IMG/VR virus record: IMGVR_UViG_3300005688_000042
DNA length: 45,332 nucleotides
Strand: one strand, 5' to 3'
Source: a virus
Lineage: Duplodnaviria; Heunggongvirae; Uroviricota; Caudoviricetes
Shown: positions 7,662 to 37,602 of the stretch, one piece after another
Layout of the letters: each line of letters begins with the position of its first letter
Position numbering within the stretch: the first letter of the stretch is position 1
The notes under the pieces: model-generated
Databases searched by the model: none
Seen by the model: the letters and a program-made list of their open reading frames with translations, nothing else
Told to the model about the DNA's origin: nothing
Made by a program: the position numbers and the translations under genes

Positions 7662-7784
7662 TGATTTTTATATTTAGAGATATTACAAATCTAAAAATTC
7701 TTAATGTTGTGTAAGAGTAAACCAGAAGAGAAGGATGCGTTTAAAAGGAAACATCTATCTTACACAACATGAAAAATTCTAAAT

Positions 7785-8635
7785 CTTGAATGCCTGAGAT
7801 TATAGCATATCGTTGGTTGCCTTTCAAGTGATTATCCAATCGGTGCTTAATCGACAGGTTCCACTTTTATCCACTTCCTCAAGGAAGTATCAACCATAGC
7901 GGCCTTTTTATACTAGAGGCAATTCTAGTGTCACTATAACCTATTCCAAGTTCTGTCTACCGCCTACTTTGCGAGCAGTGCAGGGTGCTACCCCTTACGT
8001 GCAACTTTCCTTGAACAACATATCGCCTTGCGAGCTTTACGTTGACTCAATTCACCGAAGTGTTGAGTATTACGCTACTTTCAGTTACAGTCGGTGACAA
8101 CTTTGCGTTTTAGTGTGGAATCGAACCACTGCGTTTTGTATAAGGCAAAACATCTAACCAATAGATAAAGTCTAACCTCCTAAGATGCGTGTCACCGTGA
8201 CTCCATATAACTTTATTATACGGAATACCACACACGTCCTTTCATCCGCTAAGATTACTCGTACTAGTGTATACCTTTGTGTGTCTAACCGATGAAGGCT
8301 AGTCCCACAACCTTATACCCTTTGTATGCGCCCTCGTCCGCTAAGACTCAAACCTCATACCTTGGCATTCAACATCTGTTCTAGACATGTTTGCGTGTGA
8401 TAGAATCTTGCGGATTCTTAGCTGAAGCTACACCGTTGGCCTCGCCAGCTATTGTCTCACCATGTTGTAAAACTTATACGAGTTTTCATCCTCGTCCTAC
8501 CATTTCTGGTAGTGTATTGTGCCATTGTTTAGATGGGCCATTTCTGGTGGCTGACTAGGGAGGCTGTCAACCTTTGAGCACCTTGCGATACTCTTTCCGA
8601 TCACCGATTCATTTCTTCCTCGGAGTGCTAAACCA
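7785..8635 (-). ncRNA. GOLLD-like giant structured RNA (~850 nt)
   Basis: ORF-free; many GNRA-capped hairpins; long-range helix TTGAATGCC (8372-8364) with GGCATTCAA (7794-7786); 3' end AATCTCAGGC; lies in a tRNA cluster and holds a tRNA-like insert, as known for GOLLD. Confidence 0.72.
8107..8177 (-). pseudogene. degenerate tRNA-like insert inside the giant RNA
   Basis: D-arm ATCT-ATTGGTT-AGAT, TTTTG-CCTTATA-CAAAA hairpin, GTGG-TTCGATT-CCAC T-arm, broken acceptor stem, no CCA. Confidence 0.65.
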
Positions 8636-8686
8636 GACACCTTACGGTGTTTCGTCTCTTTTACGGGGAGACTCATCAGTGATTCC
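8630..8686 (-). ncRNA. type I hammerhead ribozyme
   Basis: GAAUCA CUGAUGA GUCUC-CCCGUAAAA-GAGAC GAAA CACC-GUAA-GGUG UC|UGGUUU: complete core, stems I-III, GUC triplet; cleavage predicted between 8636 and 8635. Confidence 0.93.
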
Positions 8687-8704
8687 CGTTACTGCATGTT
8701 GTGT

Positions 8705-8733
8705 ACTATACTCTACTACTTTTCATCTGTCAA
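8705..8733 (-). promoter_or_regulatory. sigma70-type promoter for the hammerhead/giant RNA transcript
   Basis: TTGACA-17 nt-TATAGT on the minus strand. Confidence 0.85.
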
Positions 8734-8754: not shown

Positions 8755-8915
8755 GAAAATAGGACGCCAATGTTTCGCCATTGACACAGAATCAATTAAG
8801 TCCTGTTGGTTGCGGTCCATATTCTTGTGTGGACACATGATACTTTGTTGCATGTTAGTATCAGACACTTTTAGGTTCAACCTCAACCTGCTACTCGTAG
8901 TGATAACCTATTTTC
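8755..8915 (-). ncRNA. candidate multi-branch structured RNA
   Basis: Closed by GAAAATAGG/CCTATTTTC; internal hairpins AGGTT/AACCT, TGATAC/GTATCA, GTCCA/TGGAC, ACAGGA/TTCTGT, GTCAATG-GCGAAA-CATTGGC. Confidence 0.5.
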
Positions 8916-16615: not shown

Positions 16616-16873
16616 ATGCGCAAACAAGTCTGGTATTTCAAATTCACCCCTACTATTATCGGTCCAGTCATTCACAATGTAAAATGGGCTGGGCGCATGT
16701 ATGATCCCACAAACTTGCCAGATTATGTGCGTGAAGCGCTTGGAATGGGTACGCGCGAGTCTGGTCGTCGAAGGTTGTTTCAGGGTATGGCAATCATAGA
16801 TTGTGAACGCGAATTTAATGAAAGGTTTCCGTATTATTGGCGATGGAATCGCATAGAAATCATTCCTAGTTAA
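16616..16873 (+). CDS. hypothetical protein
   Basis: 85-aa ORF, AGGA RBS. Confidence 0.6.
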   Translation: MRKQVWYFKFTPTIIGPVIHNVKWAGRMYDPTNLPDYVREALGMGTRESGRRRLFQGMAIIDCEREFNERFPYYWRWNRIEIIPS

Positions 16874-36226: not shown

Positions 36227-37180
36227 ATGAAACTTACTGAAATACTGCTTGAATCGATAAACCTAATCAAATACAAAAATCAAGTAGCCGGTATTATTAA
36301 AAAAAGTTTAGAAGAATCATTGAAAGTTCAAGTGCCAGTCGAACCCGGTCAGGATGATGAAGCCCGAGCCATTGTAAACCACCTAAGTGCTAAATTATAT
36401 GGGAAAAGTACTGAAGAGGGGATAGAATTTAATCTTAGATGGTTCTGTGATCAAATCATGGAAAAAGAGGCTGGTGTTTATGATGAACGCGGACCTTATG
36501 AACATATACAAGTAAGTTTTACAGATTCCATTAAAGATCTAGGTCAATGCTATCATAACCATATTTCTCTTAATAGGACAAAACTATTAAAACCATTTTT
36601 AGATACTATTAATGGTGAATATATTGAAAGTGTTGCATCTTCATTTAACACTATTGAAGATTATAATCATGAAGTAAAAAAATATGGAATAAACATAGAT
36701 GTAAATTTGGATGGACCATTTAATAAACTCGTTGATGTGTTATTACATGAAATGGTGCATGCAATACAACATTATAGACAATGGGAAGTCAATAATGTAA
36801 ATGGGCGTCACACTGGTTATACTGAATACAGAAGTTATCTCGAAAAAGACAAAAAAGAATTTCATAAAATGATGAACAGTGACGAATGGACTGACAGAAA
36901 AAATAAAGCATACTATAGTAGCCCACAAGAAATCGCTGCACATGCTCATAATATTAGCCTACAAATCATTAACGACTATGGGGTGGATGATGAATGGGTT
37001 TCTCACCCATCACAACTTGAACTATCTAAGAATGTTAAGACATATTTGAGTCATGTATTTTCACCAGAAGAATTCAAAGATCCGAAAATATCTAAAATCA
37101 TAAATCGTTATTACCGATTAGTATATAAAGAACTTGAAGATTACTTGTCTCATGTGAAGAAAAATAAGGATGATAGATGA
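36227..37180 (+). CDS. zincin-like protein with N-terminal capsid-targeting-like peptide
   Basis: MKLTEILLES; 'LLHEMVHAIQH', 'YYSSPQEIAAHA'; paralog of 44059..44934. Confidence 0.75.
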   Translation: MKLTEILLESINLIKYKNQVAGIIKKSLEESLKVQVPVEPGQDDEARAIVNHLSAKLYGKSTEEGIEFNLRWFCDQIMEKEAGVYDERGPYEHIQVSFTDSIKDLGQCYHNHISLNRTKLLKPFLDTINGEYIESVASSFNTIEDYNHEVKKYGINIDVNLDGPFNKLVDVLLHEMVHAIQHYRQWEVNNVNGRHTGYTEYRSYLEKDKKEFHKMMNSDEWTDRKNKAYYSSPQEIAAHAHNISLQIINDYGVDDEWVSHPSQLELSKNVKTYLSHVFSPEEFKDPKISKIINRYYRLVYKELEDYLSHVKKNKDDR

Positions 37181-37602
37181 AACTATGTAATTTATTTGAA
37201 ATTCAATCCAGTCCTGTGACTTGGGTCTATCCCAATATTGATGACGAGATGAATGAAATTGAAAGAACATCACAAGAACTTGATATAAATTTACAACAAT
37301 TGCTTGATTCTTTTCAACATGCTCGTCTTATTACATTAAATGACACTATATGGTCTAGATTGGATAATACCGATTCCTATGATATTGAACAAGGTGATAT
37401 GGAGTCTGTCACTCATCTATCCTCGCAGTATGGAAAAGATTTACAGAGTATATTAAGAGTTTTTAGTAATGCTGGTAGTCTTCCTGCCCCAATCGTGATG
37501 AAAAGCAATGGTAGGTATTACTTAATTGCTGGTAATACTAGATTGATGGCAGCGAGAGTTCATGGTGTAATTCCTAAAGTGTTATTAGTCGTAGTGACAT
37601 AA
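37177..37602 (+). CDS. ParB/sulfiredoxin-like domain protein
   Basis: MKLCNLFE; 'LPAPIVMK..GRYYLIAGNTRLMAA'. Confidence 0.7.
   Translation: MKLCNLFEIQSSPVTWVYPNIDDEMNEIERTSQELDINLQQLLDSFQHARLITLNDTIWSRLDNTDSYDIEQGDMESVTHLSSQYGKDLQSILRVFSNAGSLPAPIVMKSNGRYYLIAGNTRLMAARVHGVIPKVLLVVVT

Follow-up and report, generated by a model that had tools for sequence, protein, structure and literature searches.

Genomic Context and Architecture of the Locus

The window analyzed here, a stretch of 45,332 nucleotides, corresponds to positions 60628-105959, on the minus strand, of a phage record of 306,759 bp. This record is complete and has direct terminal repeats, and its source is therefore a jumbo phage. 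For one protein of this genome, the top matches are in Agrobacterium phage Atu_ph07 and Ralstonia phage RsoM2USA. Within the window, a hammerhead ribozyme and a GOLLD RNA form a unit that is embedded in a long tRNA cluster on the same strand, with tRNA genes flanking it on both sides. The features of the locus, in the order of transcription, are as follows.

8764..8787, minus strand: terminator-like hairpin with a T-run, upstream of the promoter; 9 pairs, weak at -8.8 kcal/mol
8705..8733, minus strand: sigma-70-type promoter; -35 TTGACA at 8733-8728, 17-nt spacer, -10 TATAGT at 8710-8705; scan score 11/12
8685..8689, minus strand: 5′ strand of a pseudoknot, ACGGG, directly upstream of stem I; pairs with CCCGU at 8667-8663, the first five bases of loop II
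8630..8684, minus strand: body of a type I hammerhead, from sequence reading, descriptor scan, covariance model R1, and alignment A4; the complete element spans 8689-8630
8684-8680 with 8635-8631, minus strand: stem I, AAUCA/UGGUU, with an optional extra pair G8685-U8630 (5-6 bp)
8679-8673, minus strand: core CUGAUGA, from sequence reading
8672-8668 with 8658-8654, minus strand: stem II, GUCUC/GAGAC, 5 bp, around the loop CCCGUAAAA
8667-8659, minus strand: loop II; the 3′ strand of the pseudoknot is 8667-8663
8653-8651, minus strand: GAA of the GAAA core, from sequence reading
8650-8646 with 8641-8637, minus strand: stem III, ACACC/GGUGU, 5 bp, with a GUAA loop
8635..8636, minus strand: predicted self-cleavage site; C17 is C8636, and the cut C8636/U8635 follows from hammerhead geometry (3′ of H17)
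8635-7791, minus strand: 845-nt GOLLD RNA, from the cut site to the end of the RF02032 model
8239..8635, minus strand: GOLLD 5′ domain, of a subtype beginning UGGYUURRCA; homologous and structured in all hammerhead-bearing loci
7791..8238, minus strand: conserved GOLLD 3′ domain (RF02032); 198.2 bits against a cut-off of 150, E 1.5e-54, full model 1-416
7687..7786, minus strand: long imperfect hairpin, ~25 bp and A/U-rich, a few bases past the GOLLD 3′ end; -25.6 kcal/mol, z -4.6, and 0/200 shuffles fold as well

A preliminary description of this DNA had proposed a complete type I hammerhead on the minus strand, a TTGACA-17-TATAGT promoter upstream of it, and a GOLLD-like RNA of ~850 nt directly after the cut. 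All three were recovered on re-reading: the promoter at 8733-8705 with 11/12 in the promoter scan; the core, the three stems, and the predicted cut at 8636/8635; and the RF02032 match, which brings the RNA from the cut onward to 845 nt. The promoter sets the expected transcription start at ~8699-8696 on the minus strand, and a leader of 15 nt lies between TATAGT and the start of the hammerhead (ACGGG). The hairpin at 8764..8787 is probably the end of the preceding tRNA transcript.

Structure of the Hammerhead

The window copy contains C3 U4 G5 A6 N7 G8 A9, G12 A13 A14, the A15.1-U16.1 pair (A8650-U8637), and a non-G H17. Of the three helices around this core, stem I is open, and stems II and III are each closed by a loop. 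After the predicted cut, U8635 is nucleotide 1 of GOLLD, which would begin 5′-OH UGGUUUAGCAC... The preliminary description had envisaged a bulge in stem I that contacts loop II. This detail does not hold; the contact is instead a covarying 5-bp pseudoknot between the leader and loop II (ACGGG 8689-8685 with CCCGU 8667-8663).

The nearest-neighbor minimum free energy fold of the leader (-19.7 kcal/mol) is not the hammerhead, which as a nested structure has -11.5 kcal/mol. This minimum-energy fold uses the pseudoknot strands, and a nested fold cannot combine them with stem II. Such a preference for a nested fold is to be expected where the folding method has no means of representing a pseudoknot. 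Self-cleavage activity of the window hammerhead is predicted here from sequence alone.

Chance Occurrence and Rfam Scores

We applied a custom descriptor for all three hammerhead topologies to both strands of the 306,759-bp genome. The window copy (stems 6/5/5) was the one strong hammerhead found on the two strands together. Stems of at least 6/5/5 arose in 0 of 100 dinucleotide-preserving shuffles of the genome, and stems of at least 5/4/4 appeared at a mean of 0.02 per shuffle.

Confirmation by cmsearch with the Rfam hammerhead model, to which the preliminary description had looked, was not obtained: RF00163 gave 17.8 bits (E 0.19 with 501 nt searched), and its gathering score is 34. An Rfam search of the window at the gathering threshold found no hammerhead, and Rfam likewise found none in Xanthomonas phage XacN1, in Stenotrophomonas phage CM1, or at the loci L003 and L004. 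At 15 other loci retrieved with a GOLLD pattern, Rfam detected no self-cleaving ribozyme family at threshold, a weak result since Rfam misses the real hammerhead too. In our reading, the sub-threshold RF00163 score reflects a limitation of the sequences that seed the model and is no defect of the element. Because Rfam annotation misses the window ribozyme, similar couplings may be under-counted.

Related Loci in Other Phages

In a BLAST search of the unit against phage records, only the 3′ half of GOLLD matched, in XacN1, CM1, and Stenotrophomonas phage RAS14. About 470 nt upstream of the Rfam GOLLD match in both XacN1 and CM1 stands a TTGACA promoter, followed by a hammerhead and then UGGUUUGACAAC. 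The predicted cut sites are 38187/38188 in XacN1 (AP018399.1) and 177140/177141 in CM1 (OP883945.1), and for the second XacN1 copy GOLLD is predicted to begin at 356983. With a GOLLD-specific pattern, we retrieved 54 viral contigs, three of which (L004, L016, and L020) carry a hammerhead that is similarly spaced from GOLLD. A pattern combining the hammerhead with the GOLLD start added the metagenomic contigs L061, L062, and L063, the last being a second copy of L004. The distinct ribozyme sequences number eight: the window, XacN1, CM1, and five metagenomic contigs (L004, L016, L020, L061, and L062). Several jumbo phages besides that of the window share the arrangement. [quoted passage not shown] Three further contigs, L058, L059, and L060, matched the hammerhead pattern and were rejected, as they have neither the stems nor GOLLD.

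A tmRNA gene lies ~500 nt upstream of the hammerhead-GOLLD unit of XacN1 (L001 1011-1430; AP018399.1 ~37177-37596). It scores 123 bits with the permuted tmRNA model and 108 bits with the beta-proteobacterial tmRNA model.

Our covariance model R1 has the window copy as its only sequence and contains stems I-III but not the pseudoknot. Searched against 642 kb from 63 sources, mostly GOLLD-pattern loci, R1 found eight distinct loci with E values of 1e-6 to 1e-15, the seven others scoring 36-65 bits (E 1e-6 to 8e-15); beyond these eight, there was no match below E 1 in the same sequences. Weak R1 matches at XacN1 16711-16764 and at two places in CM1 were rejected, as they are not hammerheads.

Conservation and Covariation of the Ribozyme

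Alignment A4 is the R1-based alignment of the eight loci, in which we counted pairs for stems I-III and for the pseudoknot, which was first noticed by eye. Paired cells amount to 96.1%, compared with ~30-42% when the partners are slid by 1-3 columns. Compensatory changes occur in 12 of the 20 pairs, and 0 of 500 shuffles matched any of five measures; this covariation comes from eight distinct sequences, with stems I-III aligned by a model that already contains them. Pairing reaches 100% in stem I, 97.5% in stem II, and 100% in stem III, with one, four, and four compensatory pairs, respectively. The stem I strand UGGYU is almost invariant, such that two of the five pairs never vary and two vary on one side only.

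For the pseudoknot, 87.5% of cells are paired, and three of the five pairs covary. The first position is GC in four loci, UA in three, and CG in one; the third is GC in seven and CG in one; and the fourth is CG in five, AU in one, and UA in one. Since R1 does not contain the pseudoknot, the evidence for this helix does not depend on how the sequences were aligned.

Core positions of the hammerhead are invariant in all eight loci save N7 and H17 (C or A), and the register of the cut is identical in 8/8. The G10.1-C11.1 pair that closes stem II by the core is likewise G-C in every locus (A4 columns 22-41). The A9/G10.1 junction of hammerheads is usually uninterrupted. Four relatives (XacN1, CM1, L061, and L062) have an extra one or two U between A9 and G10.1 (A4 columns 20-21), and the window copy has none.

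The Ribozyme Is Tied to One GOLLD Subtype

In the GOLLD 5′ domain, the conserved sequence sets in with the base immediately 3′ of the cut, and compensatory changes are present in 40 of the 60 pairs predicted for this domain. The distance from the cut to the conserved 3′ terminal motif is 844-845 nt in the window and 795-846 nt over the seven loci with the 3′ end present. Within the set of 54 GOLLD-pattern loci, every example of the UGGYUURRCA 5′-domain subtype has the ribozyme, and no other locus does. Other GOLLD subtypes gave no R1 match in the 642 kb from 63 sources and no Rfam ribozyme in 15 loci. In the survey upstream of GOLLD homologs suggested in the preliminary description, the ribozyme is present at eight distinct loci including the window and absent from most GOLLD RNAs. 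A ribozyme-made 5′ end is therefore not a general requirement of GOLLD. An upstream tRNA as the general maker of the GOLLD 5′ end was also considered and rejected, since many GOLLD loci are without any tRNA.

In searches of whole records, GOLLD and the ribozyme were both found in XacN1, in CM1, and in the complete 153-kb phage behind L016. XacN1 has two copies, ~320 kb apart near both ends of the record. Whole-record searches of Atu_ph07 and RsoM2USA found neither GOLLD nor the ribozyme.

A TTGACA-16/17-TAnnnT promoter is present in seven of the eight ribozyme loci and ends 15-24 nt ahead of the core, so that transcription would begin with the pseudoknot strand or shortly ahead of it. The eighth ribozyme, that of L016, starts 5 nt after tRNA-Trp and has no promoter. 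Because the upstream element varies (promoter in seven loci, tRNA-Trp in L016) and GOLLD is constant, the ribozyme is tied to GOLLD and not to the promoter. The promoter-ribozyme-giant RNA unit first proposed is real and conserved, with the predicted cut at GOLLD nucleotide 1 in eight loci, but the constant link in it joins the ribozyme to GOLLD and not to the promoter.

The hairpin at 7687..7786 is probably the 3′ boundary of the unit, where termination or RNase III cleavage could define the GOLLD 3′ end. The hairpin that follows GOLLD is very similar in L004 and terminator-like in L016 and L061. Together, this downstream hairpin and the terminator-like hairpin upstream of the promoter suggest a self-contained transcription unit.

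Two further observations concern the GOLLD RNA itself. In the Rfam alignment, the GOLLD linker at ~8107-8140 (minus strand) has an insertion with GUGGUUCGAUUCCAC, which is like a tRNA T-arm, and inside the GOLLD of L004 a tRNA model matches at L004 3239-3304 with 34 bits; both fit published remarks on tRNAs in the GOLLD linker. A promoter-like TTGAAA-17-TATAAT with an upstream TG (11/12) lies at 7799-7827 on the minus strand and overlaps the GOLLD 3′ terminal motif. This site may be a mere reflection of the conserved UAUAAUCUCAG, or it may drive the downstream tRNAs.

Proposed Maturation of the GOLLD 5′ End

We propose, with considerable confidence, that the pseudoknot-stabilized type I hammerhead at 8689-8630 is active and heads a dedicated GOLLD unit, in which it very probably generates the precise 5′ end of GOLLD. 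The order of the proposed unit is promoter (8733-8705), ribozyme, 845-nt GOLLD (8635-7791), and long hairpin (7786-7687). RNA polymerase would start near 8699-8696, and the first ~60 nt would fold into the hammerhead during transcription, with the ACGGG leader strand pairing with loop II and so keeping stems I and II parallel. The RNA would then cut itself between C8636 and U8635. The discarded leader of ~60 nt would carry the 5′-triphosphate, the entire catalytic core, and a 2′,3′-cyclic phosphate end, and GOLLD would keep a single uniform 5′ end, the 5′-OH of U8635 (UGGUUUAGCAC). The task of the ribozyme would be to define the start of GOLLD precisely, with no help from host nucleases and irrespective of the upstream element. 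We infer that this cleavage occurs in vivo.

A structural setting in which the 5′ end might matter comes from the cryo-EM structure of GOLLD env-38, a 14-mer cage in which each half-shell is capped by a crowded, seven-fold arrangement of 5′ domains (bioRxiv 10.1101/2024.12.08.627333). Multimeric cage assembly is known for env-38 only (bioRxiv 10.1101/2024.12.08.627333). A clean 5′ end is possibly important, since extra 5′ sequence might hinder the seven-fold packing of 5′ domains in the cage cap. Cleavage might even be an obligatory folding checkpoint that frees UGGUU from stem I and lets it pair elsewhere within the 5′ domain. Such an exchange of partners would render the cut irreversible and license the seven-fold cap, with an uncut leader blocking the 14-mer; we consider this unlikely. 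RNAalifold predicts an internal AGCC segment as the partner of the freed UGGUU. The two pair in 26 of 28 cells and, slid by one, in 20 of 28, a modest margin, with 0 compensatory changes, and a second candidate partner lies ~85 nt downstream.

Alternative Explanations

RNase E is stimulated by 5′-monophosphate, and, along the lines of the preliminary description, the cut might serve a mainly chemical purpose, in which a 5′-OH that is poorly handled by 5′-monophosphate-dependent RNase E (or by RNase J) lengthens the life of the RNA. Ribozyme-cut 5′-OH transcripts can indeed be more abundant in E. coli. The L016 locus also fits this explanation, as its RNA follows a tRNA. If only host enzymes processed the 3′ end of that tRNA, the downstream RNA should carry a 5′-phosphate, an outcome that the hammerhead cut would avoid. 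In seven of eight loci, however, the promoter is directly upstream, so that the uncut RNA would have a 5′-triphosphate, which is also protective. The 5′-OH may also fail to persist, since the proteins of the phage include RNA ligase homologs and a P-loop kinase that resembles polynucleotide kinase (phrog_505, E 3e-20). Moreover, sequence cannot separate a need for the 5′-OH from a simple need for a defined end. We regard a mainly chemical role as rather doubtful, although a 5′-OH may give the RNA added stability.

The ribozyme could instead be retained after the cut, or stay uncut, with stem I and the pseudoknot keeping its fold attached to the start of GOLLD. It would then serve as a structural part of the RNA or as a switch that cleaves and ligates reversibly. 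Religation is within the reach of natural hammerheads that have tertiary contacts, and the near-invariance of UGGYU in stem I could mean that this strand has a second role. Retention would have to be achieved with a stem I of only 5-6 bp, though. Ahead of the pseudoknot, the leader shows no conservation, and only a few bases separate its beginning from the predicted transcription start; in L016, it is attached to a tRNA that itself needs release. Retention therefore seems to us quite improbable. Least credible by far is that the element is a chance or decayed hammerhead-like sequence and inactive. The Rfam score below threshold would suit such an origin, but none of the 100 genome shuffles is comparable, the core bases are conserved, 12 pairs have compensatory changes over eight loci from different phages, and the register with respect to GOLLD is fixed. 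Our preferred explanation remains that the hammerhead makes the GOLLD 5′ end. A second ribozyme or circularization was also considered and dropped, as the genome has one hammerhead and no RtcB was found.

The genes for the RNA-processing enzymes mentioned above lie outside the window, on the minus strand. The P-loop kinase (G000:C1:206466-206882; 161 aa) matches phage polynucleotide kinase phrog_505 and, weakly, the kinase domain of bacterial Pnkp, and an HNH endonuclease gene adjoins its gene. The kinase could phosphorylate 5′-OH ends that ribozymes produce. Two RNA-ligase-family matches are located ~3.3 kb apart, at G000:C1:212409-212825 and 216118-216621. The open reading frame at 212409-212825 has an intein C-terminal splicing motif first and then the C-terminal part of the ligase, which suggests an RNA ligase gene that is interrupted by an intein or split in two.

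Implications for Phage Hammerheads and GOLLD

Phage hammerheads are numerous, yet to our knowledge a function has been demonstrated for almost none of them. GOLLD, reportedly discovered by Weinberg et al. in 2009, is among the largest RNAs of the bacterial world known to us, and we know of no function for it. A hammerhead locked to nucleotide 1 of GOLLD would give phage hammerheads a concrete role, the maturation of a giant non-coding RNA without a host nuclease. It also predicts where the mature RNA of this GOLLD subtype begins, a point of importance for studies of structure and assembly. Phages in culture together with their hosts are at hand in XacN1 with Xanthomonas and in CM1 and RAS14 with Stenotrophomonas.

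The ribozyme class is known and the giant RNA is known; their conserved coupling appears to be undescribed. The preliminary description knew of no report of a promoter-hammerhead-GOLLD pairing, and our literature search agrees, in that it found no paper relevantly linking GOLLD with a hammerhead or self-cleavage; the original 2009 GOLLD paper was outside its reach, and a prior mention is possible there. The search likewise found no paper linking XacN1 with a ribozyme. The GOLLD cryo-EM paper mentions tRNAs near GOLLD; among the matches listed for "ribozyme" in it, all are in the reference list, and "self-cleav" is absent (bioRxiv 10.1101/2024.12.08.627333).

Comparison with Known Systems

A designed counterpart of this arrangement is the RiboJ type of synthetic insulator, in which a promoter is followed by a hammerhead, so that the leader is removed and the downstream RNA receives a defined 5′-OH. 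RiboJ is an engineered device on mRNAs, whereas the arrangement in the window is natural, conserved, and on a giant non-coding RNA.

Pseudoknot-stabilized hammerheads of all three types are established, as are hammerheads in phage transcripts (Perreault et al. 2011, PMC3088659). The window ribozyme resembles these in its core, three-stem junction, cut 3′ of H17, Watson-Crick pseudoknot with parallel stems I and II, and occurrence in a phage transcript. The phage hammerheads of that study flank protein genes, and their role is unknown there (PMC3088659). That of the window, at the very beginning of its transcript, is instead held in fixed register with nucleotide 1 of one specific giant non-coding RNA. 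In Rfam, hammerheads make up clan CL00010, with type I as RF00163, and the window element falls below the RF00163 gathering score.

With known GOLLD RNAs (RF02032), the window RNA shares the 3′ domain (198 bits), a length of ~800 nt, a phage tRNA cluster as its setting, and a variable 5′ domain. Its 5′ domain belongs to a separate subtype that only the loci with the hammerhead have. The solved env-38 GOLLD lies downstream of tRNA-Met (bioRxiv 10.1101/2024.12.08.627333), whereas the window GOLLD stands behind a promoter and a hammerhead. Finally, the theta (HDV-like) ribozymes located by phage tRNAs are similar in being small self-cleaving ribozymes within clusters of phage non-coding RNAs, with a proposed role in maturing the end of a neighboring structured RNA (PMC10879173). 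They differ in belonging to another ribozyme class and in having as their neighbor a tRNA instead of GOLLD (PMC10879173).
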